A stretch of DNA of 64,000 nt, taken from the NCBI GenBank assembly GCA_023131895.1, contig JAGLYZ010000004.1, positions 29,895 through 93,894 on the forward strand, written 5' to 3'. The first letter of the stretch is position 1; every line of letters begins with the position of its first letter. This stretch comes from Candidatus Parcubacteria bacterium (GTDB taxonomy: Bacteria > Patescibacteriota > Minisyncoccia > Minisyncoccales > JAGMDC01). Below the pieces are notes generated by a model. That model was not told the origin of the DNA. It was given only the letters and a program-made list of their open reading frames with translations, and did no database searches. The translations under genes were made by a program, and so were the position numbers. Shown here piece by piece: positions 2,557 through 59,786 of the stretch.

Positions 2557-2557
2557 T

Positions 2558-2620
2558 TCACCCTGTTAAATGCTGCTTCGCAGCAATTTTGCCGAAGGCA
2601 AAATTATTTAACAGGGTAAA
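2558..2620 (+). repeat. Palindromic element PE copy 1 (intergenic, pilN-like/pilO-like spacer)
   Basis: TCACCCTGTTAAA ... TTTAACAGGGTA arms enclose hairpins GCTGC-TTC-GCAGC and TTTTGCC-GAA-GGCAAAA. Confidence 0.85.
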
Positions 2621-3212: not shown

Positions 3213-3491
3213 ATGAACCTGAATTTAAACGAAGACAAACAAAAAAGATTAGTGTATTTAATTATAATTCTTATTGTTTTGGTTATAATAGCTTTATTTG
3301 TTTTTAGTAAAAGCTTTTTTGTAAAACAGCCGTCAATCCCTTTAGGTACTAGTTTTGGATTACAAGAAATCAGTATCAATTTTAATATTTTAGAAAATCC
3401 TTTTGTGCAGATGCTTGAACCATTTGAAGAAATTTCTTATCCTTCAGAAGAAATAGAAATAGGCAGAGAAAACCCGTTTATTACATACTAA
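3213..3491 (+). CDS. Small single-pass membrane protein, unknown function
   Basis: ORF with one hydrophobic helix (LVYLIIILIVLVIIALFVF), tightly packed in the pil operon. Confidence 0.35.
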   Translation: MNLNLNEDKQKRLVYLIIILIVLVIIALFVFSKSFFVKQPSIPLGTSFGLQEISINFNILENPFVQMLEPFEEISYPSEEIEIGRENPFITY

Positions 3492-3586
3492 AACATTTTA
3501 ACATTTTAACATTTTAGCATTTAAACATTTCTGATTTCATTTTTTGTTAATATGTTAATATGTTAGTATGTTAATATGTTTAAATG
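3491..3586 (+). repeat. Phased 8-nt repeat array (AACATNNN units, then NNNNATGT units) ending in the pilB start codon
   Basis: Octamers in one register from 3492. ATGs at 3552, 3560, 3568, 3576 and 3584, the last being the pilB start. By-eye alignment shows about 85% identity to the array at 59675-59786. Confidence 0.8.
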
Positions 3587-5311
3587 AGTTTGATAAATCA
3601 GTTAGTAGAAAAAGGTGTCTTAAATAAAAAAGCAGCTGCTTCTTTAAAAAAGGAAATAGAATTATCTGGTAAAAGAGAAGAAGAAATAATTTTACAACAA
3701 GGAATAATTAAGGAAGATGCTTTATTCCAATTAAAAAGCGAGAGTTTGAAGGTTCCTTTAAAAGAAGTTGAGCCATCAGAAGTTCTTTTAGAAGTTTTGA
3801 GATTAATTCCCAGAGATGCTGCTGAGTTTTATCATATGGTTCCTATTAGTAAAAAAGATAGGACATTGGAGATAGGGATGGTTTATCCGGATAATTTAAA
3901 AGCCCAGGAAGCTTTAAAATTTTTAACAAGACGCGAAGGCTATTCTTTCAGAGTTTATCTAATCACTTTATCTAATTTCAGGGAGCTTTTAAAACGATAT
4001 TGGACCCTTAAAAAAGAAGTAAAAAAGGCGCTTACAGAGGTGGAAACAGAAATAGCTGAAGATGAAGTTGAAATTTCTAAGAAAGCGGCTGAATTAGAAA
4101 AGCTGGGAGAAGAGGCTCCTATTTCCAAAATTGTTTCTGTAATTCTAAAACACTCTGTAGACGGGAATGCTTCTGATATCCACATTGAACCAATAAGAGA
4201 ACAGCTGAGAGTAAGGTTTCGTCTTGATGGAATATTGCATTCCTCACTTTTTTTACCTTTAAAAATTCATCCGGCAGTGGTAGCTCGGATTAAGATTTTA
4301 GCAGAGCTAAAAATTGACGAAACTAGGGTTCCTCAAGACGGCAGGATTGGCGCTAAAATTAGCAATAAAGATATTGATTTCAGGGTTTCTACTTTCCCTA
4401 CTATATTGGGCGAGAAAGTAGTGATGAGAGTTCTTGACCCGTCCAAGGGATTAAAAGATTTTAAAAGATTAGGATTAGACGGAAGAAATCTTGAAATTTT
4501 AAACAAAGCAGCTGAAAGACCTTATGGAATGATTTTATCAACTGGGCCTACTGGCTCAGGAAAAAGCACTACATTATATGCTGTTTTACAGATTTTAAAT
4601 AGGGAAGGAGTAAATATTGTTACAATAGAAGATCCAGTGGAGTATTTTATGGAAGGTATTAACCAGTCCCAGACAAAAGAAGAGATTGGCTACGGTTTTG
4701 CTACAGCATTGCGTTCTATTTTAAGGCAGGACCCGGATGTGATTATGGTGGGTGAAATTAGAGATAAAGAGACAGCAGAATTAGCTGTTCATGCTGCTTT
4801 AACCGGGCATATTGTCTTGTCTACCCTTCATACAAATACAGCTGTTGGCGCTATGCCTCGGTTAATTGACTTGGGAATAGAGCCATTTTTACTGCCCCCA
4901 AGCTTAAGCGCAATTTTGGCGCAAAGATTAGTAAGGCGGCTTTGTCCTTTTTGTAAAGAAAAAGTAAAGGCGAATATTAAAGTTAGAGAAAAGATTTTAA
5001 AAGAAATAAATTTTTTGCCAGTTTCTACTAAAGCAGGAATTAAAGTTGATGAACCTATATCTATTTGGCAGGCAAAGGGATGTAAAAAATGCAGGATGCA
5101 GGGATACACTGGAAGGGTTGCTCTTTTTGAAATTTTGGAAATGACTAAAGAGCTTTCAGAAATAGTTTTAAAGGAGCCGTCAGAAAATAATTTCCAAAAA
5201 GAGGCAAAAAGGCAGGGTATGGTTACAATGGCTCAAGACGGCATAATTAAGGTTTTAAATGGAGTTACTTCTATAGAAGAAGTGATTAGGGTTACAAAGG
5301 AAGAAGAATAA
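3584..5311 (+). CDS. pilB: Type IV pilus assembly ATPase PilB (GspE family)
   Basis: Walker A GPTGSGKST, Asp/His boxes, C-terminal tetracysteine (CPFC...CKKC), GSPII_E N-terminal-like domain. Confidence 0.95.
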   Translation: MSLINQLVEKGVLNKKAAASLKKEIELSGKREEEIILQQGIIKEDALFQLKSESLKVPLKEVEPSEVLLEVLRLIPRDAAEFYHMVPISKKDRTLEIGMVYPDNLKAQEALKFLTRREGYSFRVYLITLSNFRELLKRYWTLKKEVKKALTEVETEIAEDEVEISKKAAELEKLGEEAPISKIVSVILKHSVDGNASDIHIEPIREQLRVRFRLDGILHSSLFLPLKIHPAVVARIKILAELKIDETRVPQDGRIGAKISNKDIDFRVSTFPTILGEKVVMRVLDPSKGLKDFKRLGLDGRNLEILNKAAERPYGMILSTGPTGSGKSTTLYAVLQILNREGVNIVTIEDPVEYFMEGINQSQTKEEIGYGFATALRSILRQDPDVIMVGEIRDKETAELAVHAALTGHIVLSTLHTNTAVGAMPRLIDLGIEPFLLPPSLSAILAQRLVRRLCPFCKEKVKANIKVREKILKEINFLPVSTKAGIKVDEPISIWQAKGCKKCRMQGYTGRVALFEILEMTKELSEIVLKEPSENNFQKEAKRQGMVTMAQDGIIKVLNGVTSIEEVIRVTKEEE

Positions 5312-7984: not shown

Positions 7985-8072
7985 AAGTATTTTTTTAAAA
8001 TGCTTTTACCCCCTCAGAGTTTTCCACAGGTACAATTTCCAAAAATGAGTTATAATAAAAAAAGAAAATAAT

Positions 8073-8136
8073 TCACCCTGTTAAATCTTTCCGAAAATTT
8101 CGGAAAGAAAATCAAAGATTTTATTTAACAAGGTAA
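8073..8136 (+). repeat. Palindromic element PE copy 2 (intergenic, upstream of pilin gene; right arm degenerate)
   Basis: TCACCCTGTTAAAT ... ATTTAACAAGGTA with hairpins CTTTCCGAAA-AT-TTCGGAAAG and AAAATC-AAA-GATTTT. Confidence 0.8.
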
Positions 8137-8173
8137 AGGTCGAAAAATTAAAAGCTTTTAATTTAAATTTAAT

Positions 8174-9190: not shown

Positions 9191-9210
9191 AATTTTTCAG
9201 CAGAAGATCC

Positions 9211-9229
9211 ACGAAGGTCGGGCCTTCGT
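9211..9229. repeat. REP-like hairpin (left of the RAYT gene)
   Basis: ACGAAGG-TCGGG-CCTTCGT, a 7-bp stem. Confidence 0.75.
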
Positions 9230-9238
9230 TTATCTAAA

Positions 9239-9955
9239 ATGCCAACAAGAAAACACAAATTAGCTAATAATGAGATTTATCATATTATTATTAGAGGAGT
9301 AAATGACTCTGAGATTTTTAAAGATATAAATGATTATTATAGAGCAATTTTTTCCATTTACGAATTTAATACTATTAACTCTGTTGATATCAGACAAAAA
9401 AGAGAGCAACGAGCTCTCACAAAGAAAAACATAAACCAAGGTCGGGCCTTCGTTGATAATAGAGACTTGTTAGTAGAGATATTATGTTTTTGTTTTATGC
9501 CGAATCATGTTCATTTATTGCTCAAGCAGATAAAAGATGATGGAATAACTAAATTTATGAGAAAATTGGGTTCAGGTTATGCAAGTTATTTTAACAAAAA
9601 ATACAGTCGAAAAGGTTATCTTTTTCAAGGAAGATTTTTTCCGGTTCATATTAAAACAGACGAACAATTGCAAGTTATTTTTGCTTATATTCACGTTAAT
9701 TCCATATCTTTGATAGAGCCAAAATGGAAAGAAATTGGAATCCAAGATATAGAAAAAGTCATTAGTTTTTTAGAGGATTATAAATGGTCAAGTTATCCTG
9801 ATTATATTGGCAAGAAGAATTTTCCTTCAGTAACCCATAGAAATTTTATGTTAGAAATGATGAATAAAGAAAAAGGTTGCAAAGATTTTATTGAAAATTG
9901 GATTAGGTACAAAAGCAAGATTAAAAAATTGCCAGATATTGTCTTGAAGAGCTAA
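9239..9955 (+). CDS. REP-associated tyrosine transposase-like protein (IS200/IS605 TnpA Y1 family, RAYT-like)
   Basis: HUH motif in MPNHVHLLL. Tyr-containing AYIHVN motif typical of Y1 transposases. Flanked by REP-like hairpins in opposite orientation. Confidence 0.8.
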   Translation: MPTRKHKLANNEIYHIIIRGVNDSEIFKDINDYYRAIFSIYEFNTINSVDIRQKREQRALTKKNINQGRAFVDNRDLLVEILCFCFMPNHVHLLLKQIKDDGITKFMRKLGSGYASYFNKKYSRKGYLFQGRFFPVHIKTDEQLQVIFAYIHVNSISLIEPKWKEIGIQDIEKVISFLEDYKWSSYPDYIGKKNFPSVTHRNFMLEMMNKEKGCKDFIENWIRYKSKIKKLPDIVLKS

Positions 9956-9979
9956 ACGAAGGCCCGACCTTCGTTTAGC
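9951..9979. repeat. REP-like hairpin (right of the RAYT gene, inverted relative to the left copy)
   Basis: GCTAAACGAAGG-CCCGA-CCTTCGTTTAGC, a 12-bp stem overlapping the RAYT stop codon. Confidence 0.75.
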
Positions 9980-10013
9980 TTTGATTTTTAGGATAATTTA
10001 GTATAATAAAATA

Positions 10014-10850
10014 ATGGTAAATATTATTTTTTATATCTTTGTTTTTATTTTTGGTTTAACAGTTGGTTCATTTTTGAATTGTGTTATTTACAGGTTAGAA
10101 AAAAAGGAGAGCGCTTTAAAAGGGCGCTCTTATTGTCCCCATTGCAAGCATCAGCTTGCCTGGTATGATTTAATTCCAGTATTAAGTTTTATAATCCTTA
10201 AAGGCAAATGCCGTTATTGCTATAAAAAGATTTCTCTACAGTATCCATTAGTAGAAATAGCAACAGCAAGTTTATTTACTTTTATTTTTTGGCATTTGAG
10301 CTTTGGATTTGATTTGGAGCAATTTGGAACAATTTGGATTTTGGATTTTCTCGCTCTATTCGCAATTACTAGTTTTTTGATTGTGATTTTCGTCTATGAC
10401 TTAAAGCACTACATTATCCCAGACAAAGTAATTTTTCCTGCTATAGCAATAGTTTTTTTATATAAATTGTTTGAAATTTTGAATTTGGAATTTGTTTCGG
10501 ATTTCGGATTTCGGATTTCGGATTTTAAGCCGTTATTATATTCACTTGGTATAGCATTTGCCGCTTCCGCCTTTTTTTTAACGATTGTCCTTGTCACTCG
10601 CGGCAAGGGTATGGGAATTGGCGATATAAAACTGGCTTTTTTAATGGGTCTTTTGCTCGGCTGGCCAAATATCTTTGTTGCTCTCTTTCTTGCTTTTCTT
10701 ATTGGTGCTATAATAGGGATAGGTTTGATTTTAGCCCGCAAGAAAACTCTGAAATCAGAAGTTCCATTTGGCCCGTTTTTGGTAACTGGGACATTTATAG
10801 CGATGTTCTATGGTAATCAGATAATTGGATGGTATTTGAATTTATTTTAG
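10014..10850 (+). CDS. pilD: Prepilin peptidase / N-methyltransferase PilD (peptidase A24)
   Basis: Zinc-binding CPHC...CRYC, polytopic membrane protein, catalytic Asp contexts (FVYDLKHYIIPD and GMGIGDIKL). Confidence 0.9.
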   Translation: MVNIIFYIFVFIFGLTVGSFLNCVIYRLEKKESALKGRSYCPHCKHQLAWYDLIPVLSFIILKGKCRYCYKKISLQYPLVEIATASLFTFIFWHLSFGFDLEQFGTIWILDFLALFAITSFLIVIFVYDLKHYIIPDKVIFPAIAIVFLYKLFEILNLEFVSDFGFRISDFKPLLYSLGIAFAASAFFLTIVLVTRGKGMGIGDIKLAFLMGLLLGWPNIFVALFLAFLIGAIIGIGLILARKKTLKSEVPFGPFLVTGTFIAMFYGNQIIGWYLNLF

Positions 10851-10928
10851 TAAAATAATAATTTGAAATTTGTCATTTGACATTGATTTGGAATAATTTG
10901 AGATAATTTGAAATAATTTTAAAAGTTT

Positions 10929-11498
10929 ATGTTAAAATGTTATAATGTTAAAATGAATAAGGCAATGACCTTGATTGAAGTTTTGGTTGTTATTGCCATA
11001 ATGCTTATTCTTATGGCAGTAGCAGTATTTGTAAATCCCAGGCCTTCAGTAGAGCTTGATAACGCTGCTCGGCAATTGGTAAGCGACCTCCGCCGCGCCC
11101 AAAACATGGCAATGTCAGCTTCAACTCAAATAGATGGATGGGGTAATGAGATTGTTCCTTGCGGCTATGGAATTTATACTCCAAATACACAGAAATATGT
11201 TATATTTTATAACGAGACAGATTGTTCAAAATTTCAGCACTGGGGAGGACCCAATCCGCCCTGGCAGGGTAGTATAGATTTTGAAACAGTGGATTTTACA
11301 GATGTAGCTCCGGGCATTACAATAACTCAAGGAGTTTCTTTAAGCATTTATTTTATTCCTCCAAGTGGAACTACTTATATTAATGGAGATTATCCACTTA
11401 TTCCTCCTCCACCTTTGCCTTACTTTGAACTTACAGCTTCCGACGGCTCTATTAGAACTGTCACTGTCACTTCAGCCGGGAAGATTGAAATACAGTAA
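10929..11498 (+). CDS. Minor pilin, GspH/FimT-like (start probably ATG 10953)
   Basis: MNKA-MTLIEVLVVIAIM prepilin-type N-terminus. First of four consecutive pilin-like genes. The upstream part of the ORF lies in the 8-nt ATG ladder. Confidence 0.7.
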   Translation: MLKCYNVKMNKAMTLIEVLVVIAIMLILMAVAVFVNPRPSVELDNAARQLVSDLRRAQNMAMSASTQIDGWGNEIVPCGYGIYTPNTQKYVIFYNETDCSKFQHWGGPNPPWQGSIDFETVDFTDVAPGITITQGVSLSIYFIPPSGTTYINGDYPLIPPPPLPYFELTASDGSIRTVTVTSAGKIEIQ

Positions 11499-11536
11499 AT
11501 CATGTTAACATATTAACATACTAATATCTTAATAAT

Positions 11537-11569
11537 ATGCTTAAATGTTTAAATGCTAAAAAGTTAAAA
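11537..11569 (+). repeat. 33-nt direct repeat, left copy (duplicate of the 5' end of the gene at 12232)
   Basis: ATGCTTAAATGTTTAAATGCTAAAAAGTTAAAA versus ATGTTTAAATGTTTAAATGCTAAAAAGTTAAAA at 12232-12264 (one mismatch). Confidence 0.8.
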
Positions 11570-12208: not shown

Positions 12209-12231
12209 AAATTTAAAAAATAACTGTTTGT

Positions 12232-12879
12232 ATGTTTAAATGTTTAAATGCTAAAAAGTTAAAATGTGAGGGTTTCAGTTTGCTTGAGGTTTTGGTTGCC
12301 ATTACAGTGCTTATTGTTGGCTTGGTTGGTGCCATAGGTTTGATTGTTTATAATGTTTCTATCAGCAGGGCAAGCCCGGAGAAAATTATCGCTGTTAATT
12401 TAGCGCAGGAGGGAATAGAAGTGGTGAGAAACATCCGTGACAGCAACTGGCTGGCAGGTGTGGTTTGGGATCAAGATATTCCTTCTGGCAATTCTATTCC
12501 TATTTTTACAGATAATAATAGAAATGATTGGCCTTCTGACCCAGATAAATGGAGACTTAGTCATATAGGGGCTGCGGAAAGCTGGAAAGAAGATGTTTAC
12601 TATGATGATATTGATAAATTTTATGGCCAGTCAAAAAAGCAAAGCACTAACCCTGCTCAATTTCCAGACGATTGGATTTCAACAATTTTCACTCGTAAGA
12701 TCACTATTACTGAGTTTTTTGTTATTGATGAGAATCCACGTAAGTTCGCTTTTATTAAGATTGTTATGGCTAAGTTTTGGCCAGACCAAGTAAAAGTAAT
12801 TTCCCAAGTTGATTGGACTGACCGCAGCGGGAATTCTCATACCATCATTCTTGAAAACCATTTGTATAATTGGAGATAG
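12232..12879 (+). CDS. Minor pilin, PilV-like
   Basis: ...KLKCEG followed by FSLLEVLVAITVLIVGL. The only in-frame ATG (12232) is the first rung of the 8-nt ATG ladder. Confidence 0.65.
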   Translation: MFKCLNAKKLKCEGFSLLEVLVAITVLIVGLVGAIGLIVYNVSISRASPEKIIAVNLAQEGIEVVRNIRDSNWLAGVVWDQDIPSGNSIPIFTDNNRNDWPSDPDKWRLSHIGAAESWKEDVYYDDIDKFYGQSKKQSTNPAQFPDDWISTIFTRKITITEFFVIDENPRKFAFIKIVMAKFWPDQVKVISQVDWTDRSGNSHTIILENHLYNWR

Positions 12880-18413: not shown

Positions 18414-20948
18414 ATGAGTAATAATTCAGAAAAAGAAAAACCAAAAGAAAAAACAGCTGAAATTGGTTATATAAAGCCCAGAGAAATTACTGAAGAAATG
18501 AAGGAATCATATATTGATTATGCTATGTCAGTAATTGTTGCCAGGGCTTTGCCTGATGTTAGAGACGGTTTAAAGCCGGTTCATCGCCGGATTTTGTATG
18601 CAATGTTTGAAGATGGCCTGAAGCATGATGCTAAATTTAGAAAATCAGCTACCGTAGTGGGTTCAGTTTTGGGTCGTTACCATCCTCATGGCGATACTGC
18701 TGTCTATGATTCTTTAGTGCGAATGGCACAGGATTTTTCTTTGAGATATCCTTTGATTAAAGGTCAAGGAAATTTTGGATCAATCGATGGCGATCCAGCG
18801 AGCGCCATGAGATATTCAGAGGCGAAACTTTCCAAAATTGGTGAGGAAACATTAAAAGATATCACTAGAGAGACAGTGGATTTTAGGGATAATTATGACG
18901 GGACCAGGAAAGAACCGACTGTCTTGCCCTCGCCAATGCCCCAGCTTTTATTAAATGGTTCTTTAGGAATCGCAGTTGGCATGATGACTAATATCCCTCC
19001 TCATAATTTGTCAGAAGTGGCAAATGGAGCTATTCATTTAATTGATAATCCAAAGGCAACGACAGAAGACCTTTTTGAATTTATTAAAGGGCCTGATTTT
19101 CCTACTGGCGGCATCATCTATAATAGAAAAGAAATTATCAGCGCTTATTGCCAAGGCAATGGTCCTATAGTAATAAGGGGAAAAACAGAAACATCTGAAG
19201 ATAAAAAAGGCAGGAACAGGATTTTAATTACAGAAATCCCATATCAAGTTCAAAAATCATCTTTGGTAGAACAGTTTGCCAAGCTTGTTCAAGAAAAAAA
19301 AATCACTGGTATTAGAGATATTAGAGACGAATCAGACAGGGAAGGTATGAGAATTGTTATTGAACTTCAGCGCGATGCTTTCCCGCAAAAAATCTTGAAT
19401 CGGCTTTATAAATTTTCCGATCTTCAAAAAACATTTCATCTTAATATGCTTGCTTTGGTAGATGGTATCCAGCCAAAGGTTTTATCACTTTTAGAGGTCT
19501 TAAACTACTTTATAATTCATAGAAAAGAAGTAGTAATCAGAAGAACCAAATATGATTTGCGCAAAGCAGAAGAAAGAGCGCATATTTTGGAAGGCTTGCA
19601 TAAATGTCTGTCAAAGATTGATGAAGTGATTAAGACAATTAAAGCATCGGCTAACCGGGAAGATGCGCTGAAGAATTTAATGAAAAAATTCAAGCTTACT
19701 GAAATTCAGGCAAACGCTATTTTAGAGACAAAGCTTTCTGCCTTAGCAAAGCTGGAAAGAAAGAAAATTGAGGAAGAATTGGCAGAAAAGAAAAGGCTAA
19801 TAAAAGAATTAGAAGCTATTTTAAAAAGCCCGCAAAAAATTAAAGAAGTCATTAAAAAAGAGCTTAGAGAAATTATTGAAAACTTCGGCGATGAAAGAAG
19901 AACCAAGCTTGTTGTCCAGAAAGTCGGCGAAATTGCTGAAGAGGATTTAATTCCGCAGGAAGAAACGATTATTACTTTAACCCAAGGCGGGTATATAAAA
20001 AGAGTGAATCCTAATGTTTATAAGATCCAAAAGAGAGGGGGCAAGGGCATTATGGGGATGAAAACTTTAGGAGAAGATATTGTAGAACATTTCCTTTTTT
20101 GCCAAACCCATGACGAACTTCTTTTCTTTACTGATTCAGGAAAGGTTTTTAAAATTCCTGCTTATGAAGTTCCTGAAGGAACAAGGGTTGCTAAAGGCAG
20201 AGGAATTTTGAATTTTTTAGAGCTTACTCCTCAAGATAAGATATTATCTATTCTTCATTTTAAAAAAAAGGGAGACCAAGAAGATGAAATGAAGTATTTA
20301 GTAATGGCAACGAAAAATGGTATGATAAAGAAAACAGATTTAAGCGAATTTGAAAATGTAAGAAGGTCAGGCTTAATTGCTATTAATCTTAAAAAAGGTG
20401 ATTCGCTTAGAAGTGTAAATAGAACCTCTGGCCATGATGAAATAGCCTTTGTGACCAAAAAAGGACAGTCAATTAGGTTTAAAGAAGATAATGTGCGACC
20501 TATGGGCAGGACAGCTGCTGGGGTGACTGGAATAAGATTAAAGGGGGACGATGAGTTGATTGGAATGGACGTTATTCACCCTGTTAAATTGTCCCGAAAG
20601 TTTTCGGGACACCTCGCAAAGCGAGGATTTAACAGGGTAAAAATTCAAAACTATCTTTTAGTTGTAAGCGAGAACGGATATGGAAAAAGAACTGATTTAA
20701 AAGAATACAGATTACAGACAAGGGGCGGTTCTGGAATAAAGACAGCCAATATTACTGAAAAGACAGGAGATTTGGTTGCCTCTAAGGTTCTTTCTGGAGA
20801 GGAGGAAGATTTAATCGTTATTTCTCGAAAAGGCCAGATTATCAGAACTCCTGTTAATTCTATTTCTATAATCAGCAGGTCAACGCAAGGCGTAAGAATA
20901 ATGCGCTTGGACAAAGGAGATAAGGTGGCATCAGGCGCTTGTATATAA
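18414..20948 (+). CDS. gyrA: DNA gyrase subunit A
   Basis: [16 protein letters not shown], catalytic Tyr context AMRYSEAKL, GyrA-box-like region and C-terminal beta-pinwheel repeats. Confidence 0.97.
20576..20640 (+). repeat. Palindromic element PE copy 3 (in-frame inside the gyrA C-terminal domain)
   Basis: TCACCCTGTTAAAT-GTCCCGAAA-GT-TTTCGGGAC-A-CCTCGC-AAA-GCGAGG-ATTTAACAGGGTAA. Translated as [22 protein letters not shown]. Confidence 0.85.
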
Positions 20949-21670: not shown

Positions 21671-22000
21671 ATGAAAATGAGAAAGTTTCTATTTATGTTA
21701 TCAGTAGGATTAGTTCTTTTTGCGCCAGTAGTGATTCAAGGTATAGAAATAGAAAATCCTTTAGACTGCGCTACTATTGACTGTGTGATTGCTTCTATCG
21801 CTGGTTTTATTTTTATGCTTGCTATAGCGATTGCGCCAATAATGTTTATAATTGCCGGCTTTGCCTTTATCACTGCGGCTGGTGATCCAGTTAAGATTCA
21901 AAAAGCTAAAGATATTGTCCTATGGACAGTTATAGGACTAGCCATTGTTTTAATGGCTTATGGAATAATTAATGTAATTCAGGAGATTTTTATAGAATAA
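21671..22000 (+). CDS. Small secreted two-TM protein, TrbC/VirB2- or T4SS-pilin-like
   Basis: Signal peptide, then two hydrophobic helices around IIAGFAFITAAGDPVKIQKAKD, resembling T4SS pilin families (from memory, not searched). Confidence 0.55.
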   Translation: MKMRKFLFMLSVGLVLFAPVVIQGIEIENPLDCATIDCVIASIAGFIFMLAIAIAPIMFIIAGFAFITAAGDPVKIQKAKDIVLWTVIGLAIVLMAYGIINVIQEIFIE

Positions 22001-22013: not shown

Positions 22014-23084
22014 ATGAAAAAAATATTTATATTAGCGATTATTTTTGTTTTTTTGTTTATTTTTGCAGTATTAATAGAAGCTAAGGATTGTGATTGGAAT
22101 ACTCCTACTTGTGGGGGATGGGCCGGATGTGAAGAAACTAATATTCAAAGCGGGTGTTCAGAGATAGCAGATTGTAGTGTTGGAGAAGGTTTTGGCGGCT
22201 GGGCTTGGCCGAAATGTGATTGTAATCTTAAAACAGAAGGTGAAAGTGATTGTTGGTGCGAGTGTAATGAACAATGCGCAGATGATTGGTGTAAAGGTTT
22301 TGGTAGCGCTAAGGGAATATGCAAAAATGGAATAGGAATTTGTTGTGATGCCACAGAAACAAATTGCGAGATTGATTCAGATGATGAAGATTGTGACGGC
22401 AAATTAAATTGTAACGATAAAGAAGATTGTGAAGGTGAGATTTGTGATACAAATAAAGTATGCAAGAATGGAGCTTGTGTTGAGAGAAAACCAGCTTGTG
22501 GTGTTGATTGCCAGCAGATAACTCAAACTTGTCTTTGCGGCAGTAAAGAAATAAAAGTAGAAAGCGGAGAGTTTTGTTGTATTGCTTTAAGTAAAAAGTA
22601 TGCTTTAAAAACAGATTGCGAGGAACAATGTGAGCCGGTTTGTCCAGAAGATTGTGATAATTTAGCTCCTGCGCCTTGTTATTGCGGTTCAAAATTAATT
22701 GAAGCTGATGAGGAGAAGTATTGTTATAACAACAAAACTTATGCTGATCAAGAAAAGTGTAAAGAAGCTGAGGCAGCGCCGCCAGGACCGCCTCCAGTGG
22801 TAGAACCAGAATGTCCTCCAGGCTCAATTTGCATTGATAATCCTATAACATCAACTAGTTTTGAAGATTTAGTTAATTCTATTGTTAATTTTATTTTTAT
22901 GCTTGCCATAGCGATTGCTCCGATAATGTTTATTATTGCTGGATTTGCTTTTATCACTGCGGCTGGGGACCCAGCAAAAGTCCAGAAAGCAAAAGATATT
23001 GCTTTATGGACAGCAATAGGTTTAATGGTTGTTTTAATGGCTTATGGAATAATCAATGTTATTAAAGAAATTTTCAGCGGATAA
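22014..23084 (+). CDS. Cysteine-rich ectodomain fused to a T4SS-pilin-like C-terminal module
   Basis: Signal peptide, about 250 aa with about 38 Cys, Pro-rich linker APPGPPPVVEPECPPGS, then 62 aa nearly identical to the C-terminus of the 21671 product. Confidence 0.55.
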   Translation: MKKIFILAIIFVFLFIFAVLIEAKDCDWNTPTCGGWAGCEETNIQSGCSEIADCSVGEGFGGWAWPKCDCNLKTEGESDCWCECNEQCADDWCKGFGSAKGICKNGIGICCDATETNCEIDSDDEDCDGKLNCNDKEDCEGEICDTNKVCKNGACVERKPACGVDCQQITQTCLCGSKEIKVESGEFCCIALSKKYALKTDCEEQCEPVCPEDCDNLAPAPCYCGSKLIEADEEKYCYNNKTYADQEKCKEAEAAPPGPPPVVEPECPPGSICIDNPITSTSFEDLVNSIVNFIFMLAIAIAPIMFIIAGFAFITAAGDPAKVQKAKDIALWTAIGLMVVLMAYGIINVIKEIFSG

Positions 23085-25011: not shown

Positions 25012-26211
25012 TTAATTTATTCTAAGATTAGCATTAACTTTAATATTTTTCCAATTTTGAGTTTCTTTTTTATGGAAATAAGCAGTTATGCCTATCATCG
25101 CAGCATTGTCAGTGCAGAATTTTTTTGTGGGAGCTAAAAAAACAAATTGGCTGCCAGTCATTGATAATTTCTTTTTAAATTGTTTTTGCAGTTCTTCATT
25201 AGCAGAAACGCCTCCGCCAAGAATAATTGTTCTTACTTTATAATCCTTTGCTGCTTTTATGGTTTTTTTAATTAAAATATCAATTACTGCTTGTTGTATT
25301 TCCTTGCACATTGCTTGAATATATTTTTCTTTTTTTACCCTGTTAAATAAAATCTCTGATTTTCTTTTGCTGGAAGCAAAAGATTTAACAGGGTGAACCG
25401 CATATAAAACAGCGGTTTTTAATCCAGAAAAACTAAAATCATAATCCTTGCTATACATCATCGGTCTAGGTAATTTTACCCTGTTAAATAAAATCTCTGA
25501 TTTTCTTTTGCTGGAAGCAAAAGATTTAACAGGGTGAATTTTAGATTTCCATTGCCGAGCTTGTTCCGCGATGGCTGGACCGCCAGGGTAACTAAGCCCT
25601 AAAATCCGAGCTGTTTTGTCAAAACATTCCCCTGCAGCATCATCTCTTGTTTCTCCGAGAATTTTGTATTTTCCAATATCTTTCATTAAAATCAATTGTG
25701 TATGCCCGCCGCTTACAACTAGGCATATCGCAGGAAATATTTTTTTTGGATTTTGGATTTTGGATTTCTCGCCAATTTGTAGGAGCAAATTGGCGAGAAT
25801 ATGTGCCTCAATATGGTTAACTGGTATAATTTTTAAATTCCATAAACGAGCTAAAGATTTAGCGAAGTTCACACCTGTCCATAAACAAGGTTCCAGGCCA
25901 GGGCCAGTAGTCACAGCAATCAAATCAATTTTCGGTTTTATAAAGTTTTTTATTCCTGCTTTTTTCAAAGCTTTTTTCAACACTGGTAAAAGATTTTTCT
26001 GGTGTTCTCTTTTTGCCATTGCCGGGTACACTCCTCCATATTTTTTGTGAATTTCTATCTGTGATGAAACAAAATTAGAGAGAATTTCTACCCTGTTAAA
26101 TAATTTCGCTTTTGGCGAAATTCCCCGATTTATCGGGGATTTAACAGGGTGAATTTTTAAAATACTAATACAAGTATCATCACAAGATGTTTCAATTGCT
26201 AAGATAATCAT
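25012..26211 (-). CDS. tsaD: tRNA N6-adenosine threonylcarbamoyltransferase TsaD, interrupted in-frame by three palindromic elements
   Basis: IETSCDDT, YGGVYP, HIEAH, VSGGHTQL, DDAAGECFDKTARILGL, PRPM, DFSFSGLKT, GGGVSAN, FCTDNAAMI. Confidence 0.93.
   Translation of the reverse strand: MIILAIETSCDDTCISILKIHPVKSPINRGISPKAKLFNRVEILSNFVSSQIEIHKKYGGVYPAMAKREHQKNLLPVLKKALKKAGIKNFIKPKIDLIAVTTGPGLEPCLWTGVNFAKSLARLWNLKIIPVNHIEAHILANLLLQIGEKSKIQNPKKIFPAICLVVSGGHTQLILMKDIGKYKILGETRDDAAGECFDKTARILGLSYPGGPAIAEQARQWKSKIHPVKSFASSKRKSEILFNRVKLPRPMMYSKDYDFSFSGLKTAVLYAVHPVKSFASSKRKSEILFNRVKKEKYIQAMCKEIQQAVIDILIKKTIKAAKDYKVRTIILGGGVSANEELQKQFKKKLSMTGSQFVFLAPTKKFCTDNAAMIGITAYFHKKETQNWKNIKVNANLRIN
25333..25397 (-). 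repeat. Palindromic element PE copy 4 (in-frame in tsaD)
   Basis: Identical over 65 nt to copy 5. Hairpins AAAATC-TCT-GATTTT and CTTTTGC-TGGAA-GCAAAAG. Read as HPVKSFASSKRKSEILFNRV. Confidence 0.9.
25474..25538 (-). repeat. Palindromic element PE copy 5 (in-frame in tsaD)
   Basis: Identical over 65 nt to copy 4, located 141 nt away. Confidence 0.9.
26088..26153 (-). repeat. Palindromic element PE copy 6 (in-frame in tsaD)
   Basis: Same arms. Hairpins ATTTCGC-TTTTG-GCGAAAT and TCCCCGA-TTTA-TCGGGGA. Read as HPVKSPINRGISPKAKLFNRV. Confidence 0.9.
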
Positions 26212-47323: not shown

Positions 47324-47403
47324 AACATATAAACATACTAACATATAAACATACTAACATATAAACGAATGCTTAAATGTTAAAATGTTTGAATGTTTAG
47401 ATG
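47324..47403 (+). repeat. Phased 8-nt repeat array (5 x AACATNNN then 5 x NNNNNATG) ending in the ftsK start codon
   Basis: Ten octamers in a single register. ATGs at 47369, 47377, 47385, 47393 and 47401, the last being the ftsK start. Confidence 0.85.
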
Positions 47404-49620
47404 ATATTGGTGGCTAAGAAAAAGAAAAACAAGAAGAATAAAAAAAATATAACCAGAAAAAAAGAGAGAAAACCTCTTTTTCACCTTGATTTGTTAGAAG
47501 ACACAAAGAGAAAAATTTATGGCGTCTTAATGTTTTTAGGCGCAATTATTATTTCTCTTTCTTTTTTTAACTTATTTGGCAGAGCTGGCCAGATTTTTAT
47601 GGATTTTTCTGACTCGTTGATTGGAAAGGCGCTTTTTATTCTGCCTTTGCTTTTTATTTTAGGAGGAGTAGTTTTCTTTAGCCAGAAATATGAGCCAGAA
47701 ATAAAAAAGAATAAATTAGCTATATTTTTTGGAATTATTGTTTTGGTCTTAGGCGTATCTGGAATTTTAGGCATTACAAGCATAGATGAAGAAATAAAGC
47801 AGGGCGGATGGCTTGGTTATTTAATATCTTTTCCTTTAATCAAGGCATTTGGGACTTTGGGCGCTAGTATTGTGTTTATAACAGTAATTATTATCGGCGG
47901 CTTAATTCTTTGGCAGATTAGCCCAAAGCCGTTGAAAAAAGAAGAACCCGCCTTTGCTAAAGCTCCGGCGGGCAAGGAAAAGCCTTCATTCGCGCCCACC
48001 TTTGCTAAAGCTACGGTGAGTGAAAAAGAAAAACCGATAATTAGCGATATTTTAAAGAAAAAAGAAATTAAACTTGAATCTGCGATAGAGAAAGAAAAAG
48101 AGGAGACATCGTCCATTTTTAAATTAAAAACAAAACCGCTTACTATTTTTTCAGGAGAGGACTATCAGCCGTTGCCATTGGATTTGCTGGCAAAAGATCA
48201 GGGCTCTCCTACTTCTGGAGATACTAAAATAAATGCAGCTATAATTCAGAGAACTCTTCAAAATTTTGATATTCCAGTAGAAATGGCGGAAGTAAATATT
48301 GGACCAACAGTTACACAGTATACTTTTAAGCCCGCAGAAGGAGTAAAACTCTCAAAAATTACTTCTTTGAATAATGATTTATCATTAGCTTTAGCCGCTC
48401 ATCCTATTAGGATTGAAGCCCCTGTTCCTGGCAGGTCATTAGTAGGAGTTGAAATACCTAACAAAGGCAGAGCCAGGGTTGGCTTAAGAAACCTATTAGA
48501 GCAGCCGGAATTCCAGAATTCTCCTTCTAAACTTACTTTTCCTTTAGGAAGAGATGTAGCCGGCAATCCTGTTTTTGGCGATTTAAGCAAAATGCCGCAT
48601 CTTTTAGTGGCTGGAAGCACTGGCAGTGGGAAAACCATTTGTCTTAATAATATTATTGCAAGCTTGCTTTATAGAAATTCTTCAGAGAGTTTAAGATTTA
48701 TTTTAGTTGATCCCAAAAGAGTAGAATTTTCTATTTACAATGGTTTGCCGCATTTACTGTCTTCAGTGATCCTAACCCCGCAGAAAACAATCAATGTTTT
48801 AAAATGGTTGATTACAGAAATGGAAAGAAGATTTGACGTGCTATCTGAAGCCAAGACAAAAAATATAGCCGGCTATAATGAGATTGCAGCTGGAACTCAG
48901 AAAATAAATGGAGAAGCATTAGAGCCATTGCCTTATATTGTTTTGATTATTGATGAATTAGCTGATGTTATGGCTGCTCGCGGCAGAGAGGTTGAGGCAG
49001 GTATTGTCCGCTTGGCGCAGATGTCTCGCGCAGTAGGAATTCATTTAATTCTAGCTACTCAAAGGCCTTCAGTAGAAGTAATTACAGGACTTATCAAAGC
49101 AAATATTACAAGCAGAATCGCTTTTCAGGTTGCTTCTCAGATTGATTCTCGAACTATTTTAGATATGGCTGGCGCAGAAAAGCTTTTAGGTTTGGGAGAT
49201 ATGCTGTTTATTTCTGCAGAAGTTGCGAAACCGAAAAGAATCCAATGCGCTTATGTTTCAGAAAAAGAGATGAAGAATGTAACTAATTGGCTGAAAAAAT
49301 CAGAAGTTCCGTCAAAAGAAATTTCAGAGGAAAAAGAAAAAATAGATAAAGAAATCTCAAATTCAGTCAGTTCCATAGAAGAAGCATTGGAAAAAGAAGA
49401 GAGTTTTTATGATGAAGATCCGCTTTACGAGGAAGCGAAAAGAATCATCATTGAATCAAAAAAAGCGTCTGCTTCTCTGCTGCAAAGAAGATTGCGGCTT
49501 GGATATGCCCGGGCTGCCCGTTTGATAGATACATTAGAGGAAAGAGGAATAGTTGGTCCGTCAGACGGAGCAAAACCAAGAGAAGTTTATATTATTGAAG
49601 AAAACGAAGAAAAGATATAG
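47401..49620 (+). CDS. ftsK: DNA translocase FtsK/SpoIIIE
   Basis: N-terminal TM helices, low-complexity linker, motor domain with Walker A GSTGSGKT, Walker B IVLIIDELAD, C-terminal gamma winged-helix (LLQRRLRLGYARAARLID). Confidence 0.93.
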   Translation: MILVAKKKKNKKNKKNITRKKERKPLFHLDLLEDTKRKIYGVLMFLGAIIISLSFFNLFGRAGQIFMDFSDSLIGKALFILPLLFILGGVVFFSQKYEPEIKKNKLAIFFGIIVLVLGVSGILGITSIDEEIKQGGWLGYLISFPLIKAFGTLGASIVFITVIIIGGLILWQISPKPLKKEEPAFAKAPAGKEKPSFAPTFAKATVSEKEKPIISDILKKKEIKLESAIEKEKEETSSIFKLKTKPLTIFSGEDYQPLPLDLLAKDQGSPTSGDTKINAAIIQRTLQNFDIPVEMAEVNIGPTVTQYTFKPAEGVKLSKITSLNNDLSLALAAHPIRIEAPVPGRSLVGVEIPNKGRARVGLRNLLEQPEFQNSPSKLTFPLGRDVAGNPVFGDLSKMPHLLVAGSTGSGKTICLNNIIASLLYRNSSESLRFILVDPKRVEFSIYNGLPHLLSSVILTPQKTINVLKWLITEMERRFDVLSEAKTKNIAGYNEIAAGTQKINGEALEPLPYIVLIIDELADVMAARGREVEAGIVRLAQMSRAVGIHLILATQRPSVEVITGLIKANITSRIAFQVASQIDSRTILDMAGAEKLLGLGDMLFISAEVAKPKRIQCAYVSEKEMKNVTNWLKKSEVPSKEISEEKEKIDKEISNSVSSIEEALEKEESFYDEDPLYEEAKRIIIESKKASASLLQRRLRLGYARAARLIDTLEERGIVGPSDGAKPREVYIIEENEEKI

Positions 49621-54415: not shown

Positions 54416-55042
54416 TTATTCTTCTTTCAAAAAATCTAAATTTTTTGGCATTTTCTTTAAAGGTTTTTCAAAGCGCAGTTTTGGGACTTTTTTATAGTTT
54501 TTGTTTTTTATCCAGCCGGTTTTAGTATAAAAATAACCGGCGCCTCCCATTTTTCCTAATTCATCATAAATATTTTTATTTTTTATAGAAACCCAATTCG
54601 CGATTTTCAACTCTTTTTTTAATGGGTTGATAGTTATGGCAGCATATTTTGGCGGAAAAATTACGCATTCTCCTTTTTTTGCTTCAACAACAACAATGTC
54701 TTCAATAATCTTTCCTTTTGTTTTTTGCATTAAAAAAATTGCTTTTCCATCAAGTACAATATATAACTCTTGGAAATTTTTTGAGTTCATATTGCCTTTA
54801 GTCCTTACAAACTCTTTGCCCAGCATTCTTGCAGGAATAATCGTAATATCATATCTTAACCCTGTTAAATGCCGCTTTGCGGCACCCCGCCTTTTATGTA
54901 AAGGCTGGGTATTTAACAGGGTAAATTCTCCTTTATGTTTTATACCGCGATGCATATAATAAAGCTCAAGATTTGGTGCTGTTTTTACCCATTTCTGGTC
55001 ATAAAGAACTTTTTTCATGTCATTTAAATATCTTATTTCCAT
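54416..55042 (-). CDS. Cupin-type glucose-6-phosphate isomerase-like protein (metal ligands substituted), with in-frame palindromic element
   Basis: LGKEFVRTKGNMNSKNFQELYIVLDGKAIFLMQ and VIFPPKYAAITIN align by eye with the archaeal cupin PGI blocks GKEFFFTKGHFH...EVY and PPYWAHRTVN. Confidence 0.65.
   Translation of the reverse strand: MEIRYLNDMKKVLYDQKWVKTAPNLELYYMHRGIKHKGEFTLLNTQPLHKRRGAAKRHLTGLRYDITIIPARMLGKEFVRTKGNMNSKNFQELYIVLDGKAIFLMQKTKGKIIEDIVVVEAKKGECVIFPPKYAAITINPLKKELKIANWVSIKNKNIYDELGKMGGAGYFYTKTGWIKNKNYKKVPKLRFEKPLKKMPKNLDFLKEE
54857..54925. repeat. Palindromic element PE copy 7 (in-frame in the cupin gene, in a different reading frame of the arms)
   Basis: AACCCTGTTAAAT-GCCGC-TTT-GCGGC-A-CCCGCCTTT-TATGT-AAAGGCTGGG-T-ATTTAACAGGGTAAA. 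Read on the minus strand as TLLNTQPLHKRRGAAKRHLTGL. Confidence 0.85.
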
Positions 55043-57712: not shown

Positions 57713-59119
57713 CTATTCAAGATAATTCTTTTCAAACCACCAGGTTAGGATTTTTTGGACATCATCTTTGAGGTCGTCGGATTTTAAAAGAACAATTATA
57801 ATATTGTGCGAAGTGTTGTCTGGCAATGGCAATTCAAATATAAATATGCCGGTATATTTTGATTCTATAATAAATCCGGTTTTGCCGCCTAAAAAGTCCT
57901 TGCTTTCCGGAAAAATATTTTTGTTATGCAAATCTTCAAAATGAACTGTTCCAAAATCCTCTATTGTTTCTCCTTTGCTGATTTTCAAAAGAGGAGGCCT
58001 GGTATTGAAAATATATTGGCTCAAATAGAAAAGATCTTGTGCAGTAGAAACGTTTTTTTCGCTTAAGCCGCTCGGGTCGTCGTAAAAAGTATTTTTCATG
58101 CCAATCATTTTTGTTTTTTCATTCATTAATCTTATTGTTTTTTCTCTTCCTGAAAAGCGGGTTAAAATTTCAGCAGCGTCATTAGATGATTGAGTTAAAA
58201 GAGGATGAAGGAGTTCAACTAAATTGTATTTTTTTCCAGCTTCTAATCCTGGCGTAGAGCCATATGCTTTTAACATTTCTTTTGTAACCCAGATTGATTT
58301 TCTTAAATCATTATTCTCAATAGCAGCTATGGCAGTCATTAGTTTAGTTAAAGAAGCTATGGGCATTATTTTTTCAGGATTTTTTTCAGCCAAAATATAA
58401 TAATTATCAAGGTCGGCAATTAAATAAGATTCAGCAGATATTTCAGAAATAACGAAGGTCGGGCCTTCGTTGGCTAACGAAGGCCCGACCTTCGTTAGCT
58501 TGTCAATTATTAAAACAGGCATTTCTATCTCTGCAGCATTATAAATGTATTCTGCATCTTCATTAGAGAATCTAACACAACCGCCAGTATAATTGAATTC
58601 AGTTGATTGGCCATTGGAATAATACGGTTCTCCGTGAATATAGTATTTACCGTAAAAATTAATGCTCCATGGCATATAAACATGAGCAATATTGGAAAAA
58701 GCAGTTTTGTGTCCGGAAATCACTTTATAAAGACCCGAAGGAACTCCTCCCCAAAATTCAGGATCTCCTTTGGCTAAAATAGGAAGTTCTTTTTCTAATG
58801 CGCCATTTTTATAAATTTGAGCTTTCATTTCTGAAAGATTAATTTCTAAAAAATCTGTTTTTTTAGAAATAAATTCCTGCCTTTTTTCAAAACCAAAATC
58901 TTTTAATTGTTTTAGTTTTATTTCTTTTTGCTTGAGTCCTTGAAGCGTATCAGCGCTGAGAATAGTCTGATTACTTTTAGTCTCTACAAAAATTTCATTG
59001 CCAGGCATTATAAAAATTAAAAAAGCAAAAAGCCCGATTAAAAGGGCTAAAAAAATAATAGATATGCAGTTTTTTTTCAGTTTAGAACTAATCATCAGTT
59101 TATCCCGCACCTTTTTCAA
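57713..59119 (-). CDS. Fusion of an L,D-transpeptidase (YkuD) domain and a D-alanyl-D-alanine carboxypeptidase (peptidase S11) domain
   Basis: YkuD catalytic block YIHGEP...TGGCVRF. S11 SxxK motif PIASLTKLMT plus SSND (SxN). REP pair in-frame between the domains. Confidence 0.8.
   Translation of the reverse strand: MKKVRDKLMISSKLKKNCISIIFLALLIGLFAFLIFIMPGNEIFVETKSNQTILSADTLQGLKQKEIKLKQLKDFGFEKRQEFISKKTDFLEINLSEMKAQIYKNGALEKELPILAKGDPEFWGGVPSGLYKVISGHKTAFSNIAHVYMPWSINFYGKYYIHGEPYYSNGQSTEFNYTGGCVRFSNEDAEYIYNAAEIEMPVLIIDKLTKVGPSLANEGPTFVISEISAESYLIADLDNYYILAEKNPEKIMPIASLTKLMTAIAAIENNDLRKSIWVTKEMLKAYGSTPGLEAGKKYNLVELLHPLLTQSSNDAAEILTRFSGREKTIRLMNEKTKMIGMKNTFYDDPSGLSEKNVSTAQDLFYLSQYIFNTRPPLLKISKGETIEDFGTVHFEDLHNKNIFPESKDFLGGKTGFIIESKYTGIFIFELPLPDNTSHNIIIVLLKSDDLKDDVQKILTWWFEKNYLE
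58451..58497. repeat. Inverted pair of REP-like hairpins inside a CDS
   Basis: AACGAAGG-TCGGG-CCTTCGTT GGC TAACGAAGG-CCCGA-CCTTCGTTA. Translated (minus strand) within KLTKVGPSLANEGPTFVI. Confidence 0.85.
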
Positions 59120-59594: not shown

Positions 59595-59674
59595 ATTATA
59601 TTAGAATATCACAATAATTATTTTCTGGCAATGTTGACAAAAATTTTGTTTTGTTTAAGATAGAGAAGTGATTA

Positions 59675-59786
59675 CAACATCTTAACATTTTAACATTCAA
59701 ACATCTTAACATTTCTGATTTTATCTTTTGTTAATATGTTAGCATGTTAGTATGCTTAAATGTTATTATGTTAAAATGATTTTATG
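59675..59786 (+). repeat. Phased 8-nt repeat array ending in the groES start codon (homologous to 3491-3586)
   Basis: AACATNNN x5, conserved core TTCTGATTTTATCTTTTG, then ATGs at 59736, 59744, 59752, 59760, 59768, 59776 and 59784, the last being the groES start. Confidence 0.85.

Follow-up and report, generated by a model that had tools for sequence, protein, structure and literature searches.

Introduction

Rickettsia palindromic elements (RPEs) are selfish palindromic repeats that are found in frame in unrelated and often essential genes, where they are tolerated at positions compatible with the protein fold and appear in the product as extra peptide segments (PMC10969869). They are about 100-150 bp in length and are not known from outside Rickettsia, and each RPE family is conserved over its full length (see also PMC10969869). 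Here, we describe a family of shorter palindromic elements found in a stretch of 64,000 nucleotides from a Candidatus Parcubacteria bacterium (contig JAGLYZ010000004.1, positions 29,895 to 93,894), which is referred to as the window. Seven copies of the element are present in the window: three in the essential gene tsaD, one in gyrA, one in the gene for a cupin-type glucose-6-phosphate isomerase (GPI), and two between genes. Five of the seven are in frame, spread over three genes, and the three tsaD sites are loops in a structural model. The analogy with RPEs drawn in an earlier, sequence-only reading of the window therefore holds for the effect on the host, whereas the architecture differs: the element is 50-70 nt long, is found in several phyla, and conserves its arms alone, with hairpins of free sequence between them. 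It is set apart from the RPE sequence families on length and hosts, without direct sequence comparison to an RPE consensus.

Bacterial MITEs (miniature transposable elements with inverted repeats) such as Correia, RUP, ERIC, Nezha, and QMITE1 are likewise short, non-coding, multi-copy sequences with terminal inverted repeats, located between or within genes (PMC10969869). The element has all of these basic MITE properties and, as for MITEs, mobilization in trans is presumed. Typical MITEs have an identifiable parent insertion sequence (IS), a perfect target duplication, and an interior that drifts freely. In contrast, no parent of this element was found in ~1.5 Mb of loci, its flanks usually have the form TTCA...TAAA, and its interior obeys a strict constraint on structure only.

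Evidence for mobility comes from the seven copies in the window, at least 120 loci in a genome scan, orthologous sites that are polymorphic among relatives, TsaD codon positions held by copies that differ in interior and orientation, and the existence of nested, tandem, and long forms. We consider it probable that these sequences are a family of short, non-autonomous, structure-dependent mobile DNA elements, whose arms would be recognized in trans and whose copies would be translated as loops when they lie in genes. In-frame selfish palindromes are a known kind of phenomenon; this family appears to be new. Its distinguishing features are a three-way junction of free-sequence hairpins closed by invariant arms, a range that crosses phyla, the addition of a core plus 4 nt with shared tetranucleotides in arrays, and slow divergence. 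Searches by arm sequence and by keywords in 8 million full texts (subscription literature not covered) returned no description of the element, and the family is apparently undescribed.

The Element in tsaD and Elsewhere in the Window

The three tsaD copies lie in an open reading frame (ORF) whose product is identical to NCBI MCK4520870.1, annotated as TsaD, and matches solved TsaD chains with E=2e-57. The Pfam match, the solved chains, and a motif check agree that the protein has the Kae1/TsaD fold, with its HxxxH metal site and the family's signature motifs; NHIEAH, SGGHT, GETRDD, YPGGP, FSFSGLKT, and TDNAAM are all undamaged in the window protein. The three copies share one plan, in which TTCACCCTGTTAAAT, hairpin 1, hairpin 2, and ATTTAACAGGGTAAA follow one another in frame. 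The sequence-only reading had described these three in-frame palindromes, their common reading frame HPVK...FNRV, the identity of the first two over 65 nt, and a stop in one frame of the arm (CCC TGT TAA) that is never the frame used. Each of these statements proved accurate, and the copies at sites 2 and 3 agree at 65 of 65 nt; the other four copies in the window had escaped that reading.

The insert at site 1 lengthens the beta1-beta2 hairpin of the protein, and the copy itself folds at -32.7 kcal/mol (z -7.8); every copy in the window folds far better than shuffled sequence (z -5 to -10.6). In the window, 13 occurrences of the 12-nt arm were counted, compared with 0.29 expected from shuffles. 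Both intergenic copies are located within a type IV pilus gene cluster. The coordinates of all copies are collected in Table 1.

Table 1. The tsaD gene and the seven copies of the palindromic element in the window.
Feature	Position	Strand	Description
tsaD	25012..26211	minus	ORF, 399 codons; three in-frame element insertions; Pfam PF00814, E=5e-82
Element copy, tsaD site 1	26087..26153	minus	63-nt insert 26089-26151, residues 21-41, HPVKSPINRGISPKAKLFNRV
Element copy, tsaD site 2	25475..25538	minus	60-nt insert 25477-25536, residues 226-245, HPVKSFASSKRKSEILFNRV
Element copy, tsaD site 3	25334..25397	minus	60-nt insert 25336-25395, residues 273-292, HPVKSFASSKRKSEILFNRV
Element copy in gyrA (ORF 18414-20948)	20575..20641	plus	In frame, HPVK..FNRV; C-terminal beta-pinwheel domain
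Element copy in cupin-type GPI gene (ORF 54416-55042, minus)	54856..54925	plus	Antisense to gene; translated FTLLNTQPLHKRRGAAKRHLTGL, frame FTLLN..LTGL
Intergenic element copy	2557..2620	plus	Between uncharacterized ORF (stop 2556) and pilO (start 2626)
Intergenic element copy	8072..8137	plus	Between pilC/T2SS-F gene and pilin gene; one right-arm mismatch (AAGGT)

Architecture of the Element

A genome scan with one genome per species and the pattern CCCTGTTAAAT-N25-55-ATTTAACAGGG gave at least 120 loci, against a chance expectation of 1-2.4. The element is ~50-70 nt in length, with variants of 30-150 nt, and carries an invariant pair of inverted arms, CCCTGTTAAAT ... ATTTAACAGGG, usually extended to TTCA- and -TAAA. 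This end asymmetry, TTCA...TAAA or its complement TTTA...TGAA, is present in 81 of 142 copies, compared with 23 symmetric ones. The two hairpins and the closing stem form a three-way junction without any unpaired junction nucleotide in 48 of 53 parsed copies, and 72% of the loops are triloops. Longer, shorter, and composite forms exist as well: at L108 (L numbers denote loci) a whole element is nested in the position of hairpin 1, L052 has a form of 150 nt whose hairpin 1 is long, and short forms have interiors of 8-13 nt.

The sequences of the hairpins are almost entirely free. Among 85 unique two-hairpin copies, 69 distinct sequences of hairpin 1 and 74 of hairpin 2 were counted, six different hairpin pairs occur in the window alone, and every stem position shows all four Watson-Crick pair types. 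Stem cells are 94-98% Watson-Crick, compared with 35-41% after permutation of partners, a contrast somewhat inflated by the prior selection of copies for folding; the real evidence for a constraint on structure is how many different sequences can be placed in a single frame without gaps. The GC content of the interior, from 0.36 to 0.70, tracks that of the host (rho 0.45, p=1e-7), while the 36%-GC arms are unchanged across hosts of 26-56% GC. The arms are thus constrained by sequence and the interior by structure alone.

Pairs of G with T make up just 0.6-2.6% of the stems, and this near-absence of wobble pairs, together with the triloops, points to palindromy at the level of DNA and not to an RNA fold under selection; template switching during replication may contribute to keeping the stems perfect. 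Signs of strand-specific folding, sought as loop or wobble asymmetry against the end asymmetry, were weak and confounded by related copies. Rfam 15, applied at the gathering threshold to the window and 18 loci, matched only tRNA and rRNA, with no match to the element, and a permissive scan of the tsaD region gave only noise; the element does not belong to a known RNA family.

Empty Sites and Polymorphism among Relatives

The presence of the element was surveyed in 120 TsaD homologues (P numbers), and DNA was compared at syntenic loci with the gene order recG-tsaD-prsW-hsp20. Element-derived peptides are confined to a few close relatives. All three sites are filled in P0002, which is 76% identical to the window protein; P0003, P0008, P0036, and P0050 are filled at site 2 alone and P0004, P0006, and P0007 at site 1 alone, while P0005 has no filled site. 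With empty sites in such close relatives and the catalytic motifs intact, the earlier proposal of insertions into an otherwise intact gene is supported, and the comparison of orthologues that it suggested did reveal empty sites.

At site 1, the empty allele of L122 reads ...AAT ATC|AAA AAG CAA..., where the filled allele reads ...AAG ATT[CAC CCT ... AGG GTA]AAA AAG CAA..., a clean insertion of exactly 63 nt. The empty alleles at sites 2 (L124) and 3 read ...AAA ATT|AAA AAT... and ...AAA GTT|AAA AAA..., respectively, and the gyrA site is unoccupied in the syntenic relative L124. At four of four comparable sites, filled alleles have a native loop beside the insert that is shorter by 5-11 residues, which may be compensation or an effect of aligning low-complexity sequence.

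Filled sites differ among lineages in their content. An orthologous copy at site 2 is common to the window, L121, and L122. At site 3, the window copy equals the window's own site 2 copy, and the L121 copy has a different interior that resembles its own site 1 copy. In different lineages the same TsaD codon positions hold copies with differing interiors and in both orientations. These patterns point to repeated insertion at the few sites that permit it, or to copies converting one another via their shared arms.

Other insertions occur in the same genes. L121, the closest relative, carries, in its TsaD (10001-11242) at a loop corresponding to about window residues 145-155, a separate perfect in-frame palindrome, CTTACCCCCACACCAAATTTTGGTGTGGGGGTAG, which encodes LTPTPNFGVGV and has a 15-bp stem and a triloop (z -7.4); this is a fourth TsaD loop, and in-frame palindromes of more than one family thus colonize tsaD. 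Further lineage-specific loop insertions of 19-45 residues are present in P0004 (YKNHASLRSAEPCFLPSVE) and, following the KKAG region, in P0006 and P0036; the one inspected at the DNA level is not palindromic. Several further positions in the TsaD of this clade tolerate insertions. The gyrA genes of L124 (14218-18147) and L126 (7814-9412) contain an intein (Pfam Intein_splicing, LAGLIDADG) that is absent from gyrA in the window (18414-20948), and gyrA is thus one essential gene with two polymorphic types of selfish insertion, an intein in L124 and the palindromic element in the window but not in L124. The element itself is not an intein, with inserts of 20-23 residues and a variable interior against a minimum of ~130 residues for inteins, which also have splicing blocks and a nucleophile at each junction, and with no Pfam intein domain in TsaD or GyrA of the window.

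Insertion Rule and Proposed Mechanism

At tsaD site 1, the net gain of 63 nt corresponds to a core of 59 nt plus 4 nt. The empty sites carry the tetranucleotides TCAA, TTAA, and TTAA at the three positions, all of which are AT-rich loops. In the metagenome scan, arms stand head to head at 90 loci, with a spacer that is nearly always exactly 4 nt long (TAAA 27, TTCA 21, TTTA 16, TGAA 13), and the same four tetranucleotides flank single copies. These loci are tandem arrays of the element, with up to six members in L176. Identical tetranucleotides flank 40 of 86 array members compared with 11 of 217 single copies (p=2e-16), and 31 of 40 arrays have at least one member between identical tetranucleotides. 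The left tetranucleotide is TTCA or TTTA in most copies; the empty sites have TTAA or TCAA instead. Two filled/empty pairs were found among the collected loci, one of low identity and one clean. In the clean pair, L195 and L183, one core (coreX) with TTTA is cleanly inserted at TTTA between two existing cores.

The rule shown by these alignments is the addition of a core plus 4 nt at a TNNA (TTAA-like) tetranucleotide, with the tetranucleotide beside an existing copy as a favored target, and this preference produces tandem arrays with 4-nt spacers. The tsaD empty sites were initially read as insertion without duplication, a reading that was revised after the 4-nt spacer rule had emerged from the metagenome scan. 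The junction can be read in two ways: as a 4-bp duplication whose two copies usually differ (TTCA and TAAA), or as a mobile unit that carries one tetranucleotide and comes to lie beside a retained target. The first reading agrees with the piggyBac reaction and the second with single-strand transposition of the IS200/IS605 type; the arrays are compatible with repeated insertion at a target that is kept.

In the mechanism that we propose, an enzyme acting in trans would recognize the arm sequence, and the inner palindromes would be needed as structure only. Our own suggestion is that the extruded hairpins perhaps allow the ends of the 60-bp element to come together. For the movement itself, the leading candidate is cut-and-paste transposition of the piggyBac/IS1380 type with its 4-nt offset, whereby the flanking 4 nt of the donor would travel along and excision would be seamless; the main alternative is a single-strand route of the HUH (IS200/IS605-like) type. 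No gene recurs near the element, with no family present at more than nine loci when 1515 ORFs taken from 120 loci were clustered all against all. Because there is no recurrent neighboring gene and the element has no coding capacity of its own, it is, as judged from these loci, non-autonomous.

Comparison with Known Mobile Systems

The eukaryotic piggyBac transposon inserts at TTAA with a 4-nt offset through a hairpin intermediate that includes four flanking nucleotides; the donor tetranucleotides travel along, excision is seamless, and flanks other than TTAA are tolerated (PMC7351741). IS1380 is a distant prokaryotic relative (PMC10140906). The element may resemble these systems in its TTAA-like target and the core plus 4 nt, and resembles them in flanking 4 nt that behave as if carried along, the footprint-free empty sites, and the tolerance of non-TTAA flanks, and a duplication of the piggyBac kind would explain the footprint-free empty alleles. 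The ends of piggyBac begin CCC...GGG, as do those of the element. The element differs in that no such transposase was identified in any locus and in that donor-type tetranucleotides at both ends of most single copies are not simply predicted.

A likeness to IS200/IS605 and to repetitive extragenic palindromic (REP) sequences of the REPIN-RAYT type is seen in the abundance of hairpins and the tandem units and may extend to an AT-rich tetranucleotide target that is kept and to the lack of a perfect duplication, since IS200/IS605 derivatives insert 3' of a fixed tetra- or pentanucleotide without duplicating it; for IS200/IS605, REP, and element alike a folded single-stranded form is plausible. 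IS200/IS605 hairpins have a conserved sequence that is read by the Y1 transposase, and REP sequences are tagged with GTAG or CGTC (see PMC3733652). The tag adjoins an extragenic palindrome of 20-40 nt, and RAYT genes have REP sequences on their flanks. The hairpins of the element, in contrast, vary even within one genome, and its conserved part is the closing stem. A derivation from IS200/IS605 does not fit the 69 and 74 distinct hairpins among 85 copies, and no Y1 transposase gene was seen among the neighboring ORFs of the loci. The REPIN-RAYT assignment likewise fails: the ends are TTCA-CCCTG and CAGGG-TAAA with no GTAG or CGTC tag, ~16-18% of the copies are genic, and there is no recurrent neighbor.

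Integron attC sites are also defined by structure, with short conserved inverted cores around a variable and sometimes branched center. The arm contains GTTAAAT/ATTTAAC, in agreement with the attC cores GTTRRRY/RYYYAAC. The order of the cores is reversed, however (GTTAAAT...ATTTAAC as against RYYYAAC...GTTRRRY), and there are neither cassette ORFs nor an integrase nearby. Unlike attC sites, the element has no extrahelical bases, and its copies are dispersed and located inside genes.

Distribution

Among the matches listed from the genome scan, the hosts within Patescibacteria are Nealsonbacteria, Doudnabacteria, Saccharibacteria, Moranbacteria, Kaiserbacteria, Niyogibacteria, Nomurabacteria, and Paceibacterota, and those outside are Omnitrophota, many Desulfobacterales metagenome-assembled genomes (MAGs), and WOR-3/Stahlbacteria. 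Isolated matches in further taxa may in part reflect chance or mis-binning.

Several of these occurrences have features of their own. In the complete genome CP179888.1 of a Candidatus Nealsonbacteria (L053:1198-1253), a copy lies in the spacer of an rRNA operon, upstream of the 23S rRNA gene and ~30 nt from its 5' end, and is presumably transcribed within the rRNA precursor. A WOR-3/Stahlbacteria subfamily (L010, L014, L018, L023, L044, L049, L055, L057, L071, L076, L099, L107) combines the element's arms with a conserved 40-nt interior that lacks the two hairpins. Its members have TCTGTGG on both flanks, then a TTGACA-like box, with a ribosome-binding site and ATG ~70 nt downstream, and may be a promoter-carrying or operator-like variant.

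In Desulfobacterales MAGs, a 48-nt version of the element is central in a larger conserved repeat of ~200 nt (L011, L013, L015, L021, L030, L031, L048, L062, L063, L065, L078, L080, L086, L103, L112). This repeat is multi-copy within a MAG and has a long-range stem, GACGGC..GTAAAAAGC / GCTTTTTAC..GCCGTC, besides which it forms a further hairpin, GGCGTAC..GTACGCC. Its folding energy is -90 to -120 kcal/mol, and Rfam contains no match to it. Another repeat with the element's arm occurs between ribosomal protein genes at L161:3630, L161:5251, and L150:4061, where solo left arms are followed by the common sequence ATCATTTAAGTTTAAAAAACTCA..., and each precedes an ORF start reading QGNIFLIRCARKKNIM.

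Slow Divergence and the Possibility of a Host Function

A number of observations weigh against a trans-mobilized element of the kind proposed. Single copies are mostly flanked by TTCA...TAAA and have no identical 4-bp direct repeat, contrary to a simple target duplication, and a piggyBac-like account needs the donor tetranucleotides to be kept at both ends, which simple heteroduplex segregation does not give. Neither an autonomous parent nor a transposase with these ends was found among solo arms and arm pairs 130-5000 nt apart in ~1.5 Mb of loci; the IS-sized intervals between arms hold host genes, including those for a ribosomal protein, a thiolase, and a dehydrogenase. A phage vector found no support, as no viral contig was matched by the element. 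No decayed copy is present in the window with up to three mismatches per arm allowed. Finally, orthologous copies at tsaD sites 1 and 2 differ at 4 of 123 positions (~97% identical) between genomes in which tsaD as a whole is only 79% identical and its third codon positions are 60-64% identical (binomial p=1.8e-8 for conservation of the element). Inert junk would decay, and this slow divergence therefore requires gene conversion via the arms that copies share, renewal of copies through excision and re-insertion, or a function at the level of the host.

The last of these possibilities is the main rival explanation, which we regard as unlikely. The arms would bind a conserved host protein, for instance a tyrosine recombinase of the Xer type, some nucleoid protein, or a regulator, and selection would keep the copies for a role in DNA or RNA. 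In its favor, the window lacks decayed copies, orthologous copies change at a far lower rate than the gene around them, synonymous positions included, and the arms are invariant across phyla and across host GC contents of 26-56%; the WOR-3 subfamily, moreover, adjoins promoters. However, the presence of copies is polymorphic between close relatives and their position relative to genes is not conserved, and tandem arrays, nested copies, and length variants typify mobile DNA.

One form of this explanation concerns Xer recombination. Xer/dif-type sites, such as those of integrative mobile elements exploiting Xer (IMEXs), consist of two 11-nt arms that face each other across a central region of 6-8 bp. 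The XerD arm of dif, TTATGTTAAAT, is conserved across phyla (PMC2731167), and the element's arm matches it at 8 of 11 nt (TGTTAAAT). This match is marginally beyond chance, with a probability of ~5-10%, by a rough estimate, that 8 nt agree at random with some site among the many that are known. The arms of the element lie 34-40 bp apart and face outward, the wrong direction for a dif-like site, and arms that do stand head to head have 4 nt between them where 6-8 nt would be required. A search of ~1 Mb of DNA revealed no dif-like site, and the element does not qualify as a Xer/dif-type site.

Fate of the Element inside Genes

Frame statistics were obtained for 142 copies, those of the window and 127 loci, with 23 genic and 119 non-genic. 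The length falls in the class that yields an insert of a multiple of three in 21 of 23 genic copies compared with 51 of 119 non-genic ones (Fisher p=1.6e-5), and at least two frames are open in all 23 genic copies as against 52 of 119 (p=6.6e-8). Each arm, on either strand, leaves two frames open and one closed, and the canonical right end shuts one extra frame by TAA or TGA. In the antisense copy of the GPI gene, the end variant TTAACCC abolishes the TGA that the canonical end would put in the used frame.

An AlphaFold2 model of the window TsaD, made with the 120 homologues, has a mean predicted local distance difference test (pLDDT) score of 85.3. The score falls only in the three inserts (residues ~21-40, 221-245, and 271-292) and in a single loop that is variable by nature; the block of residues 21-40 at site 1 has values of 63-67. 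All three inserts are modeled as loops, that is, as low-confidence protrusions between well-predicted elements.

Length, open frames, the stop-removing end, and placement in loops together favor translation, as none of them would be needed if the element were spliced out or bypassed. The frame statistics suggest that genic copies stay in the mRNA and appear in the protein as extra surface loops, in line with the claim of the sequence-only reading that the element is translated rather than removed. Selection would purge copies that break the frame, and the survivors, which have lengths in multiples of three, contain no stops, and lie in surface loops, would be translated as loops of 20-23 residues, commonly of the form HPVK...FNRV.

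The competing account, in which the element is removed from the mRNA like an intron at the closing stem, or bypassed by the ribosome as in T4 gene 60 and the mitochondrial 'byp' elements, to leave a protein without the insert, seems to us very improbable. The closing stem that joins both flanks is indeed highly stable (-20 to -38 kcal/mol), and Patescibacteria have many introns in their RNA genes (see PMC13011429). Yet genic copies are strongly filtered for a length and for open frames that would be needless in this case, and the compensating end variant in the GPI gene deletes a stop codon. The element is also below the size of a self-splicing intron and has no match among Rfam ribozymes and introns, its junctions have no matched take-off and landing codons, and its stems are nearly free of G.U pairs, unlike selected RNA structure.

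Alternative Readings: Origin in Place or Assembly Artefact

In a further reading, the palindromes would be generated and perfected in place through template switching during replication (quasi-palindrome correction), and gene conversion between existing copies would be their sole means of spread, without mobility. Near-perfect Watson-Crick stems with triloops are expected of templated correction, interiors have been swapped between copies at orthologous sites, and unrelated in-frame palindromes are also found in the tsaD gene family. Such an origin is nevertheless slightly less credible still than removal from the mRNA. Identical arms of 11-15 nt at hundreds of unrelated loci in several phyla cannot have originated independently, exact unit-length insertions into empty sites are seen, and the arrays follow a 4-nt junction rule. 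That the insertions are an assembly artefact or an ordinary conserved loop, the two outcomes that would have overturned the sequence-only reading, can be dismissed with near certainty, since the same insertions are present in independent NCBI, JGI, Logan, and ENA assemblies, most TsaD homologues have no insert, and the inserts are gaps in alignments to solved TsaD structures.

Implications

If the probable reading as a trans-mobilized element holds, essential genes in some of the smallest genomes keep repeated selfish insertions as parts of their proteins, a natural experiment on the tolerance of loops in TsaD, GyrA, and others. The element may be the source of many unexplained insertions in proteins of Patescibacteria. 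Its copies lengthen proteins and can mislead homology annotation and structure prediction, and they are usable as strain-level markers in metagenomes. The clean split between constraint on sequence in the arms and constraint on structure in the interior, together with the junction rule, makes the mobilizing enzyme searchable and testable. A small, seamless bacterial element of the TTAA type would also be attractive as a genetic tool in organisms for which hardly any exist now.

A more far-reaching possibility, which we put forward tentatively and with more doubt than belief, is a hitherto unrecognized, structure-defined class of mobile DNA: a three-way-junction mini-element whose arms are read by a putative enzyme or by a hijacked Xer-type host recombinase, which moves seamlessly with a 4-nt offset, crosses phyla where uncultivated bacteria live together, and generates surface loops in the essential proteins of Patescibacteria with reduced genomes. 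The slow divergence of resident copies would then reflect ongoing excision and re-insertion or conversion, possibly with a role at the level of the host.

Other Repeats in the Window

The window contains further repeats. At 3473-3596 and 59665-59780, arrays with a period of 8 nt, (AACATTTT)n, face (ATATGTTA)n across a short center, and shorter arrays of this period are found at 10928-10960, 11536-11569, 12223-12267, and 47368-47404. ORFs at 3584, 59784, 10929, 12232, and 47401, several of which are type IV pilus genes, have such an array directly upstream of the start codon or overlapping it. A common regulatory role for the arrays, as promoter, leader, or iteron-like sequence, is possible. 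A palindromic repeat, AACGAAGGTCGGGCCTTCGTT, occurs four times (9199-9233, 9423-9457, 9944-9978, and 58440-58474), mostly just after pilin-like ORFs; it could be terminator-like or REP-like and is unrelated to the main element. Finally, a 252-nt direct repeat with 77% identity (21749-22000 and 22833-23084) forms the 3' ends of the adjacent ORFs 21671-22000 and 22014-23084 and is probably a paralogous C-terminal domain.

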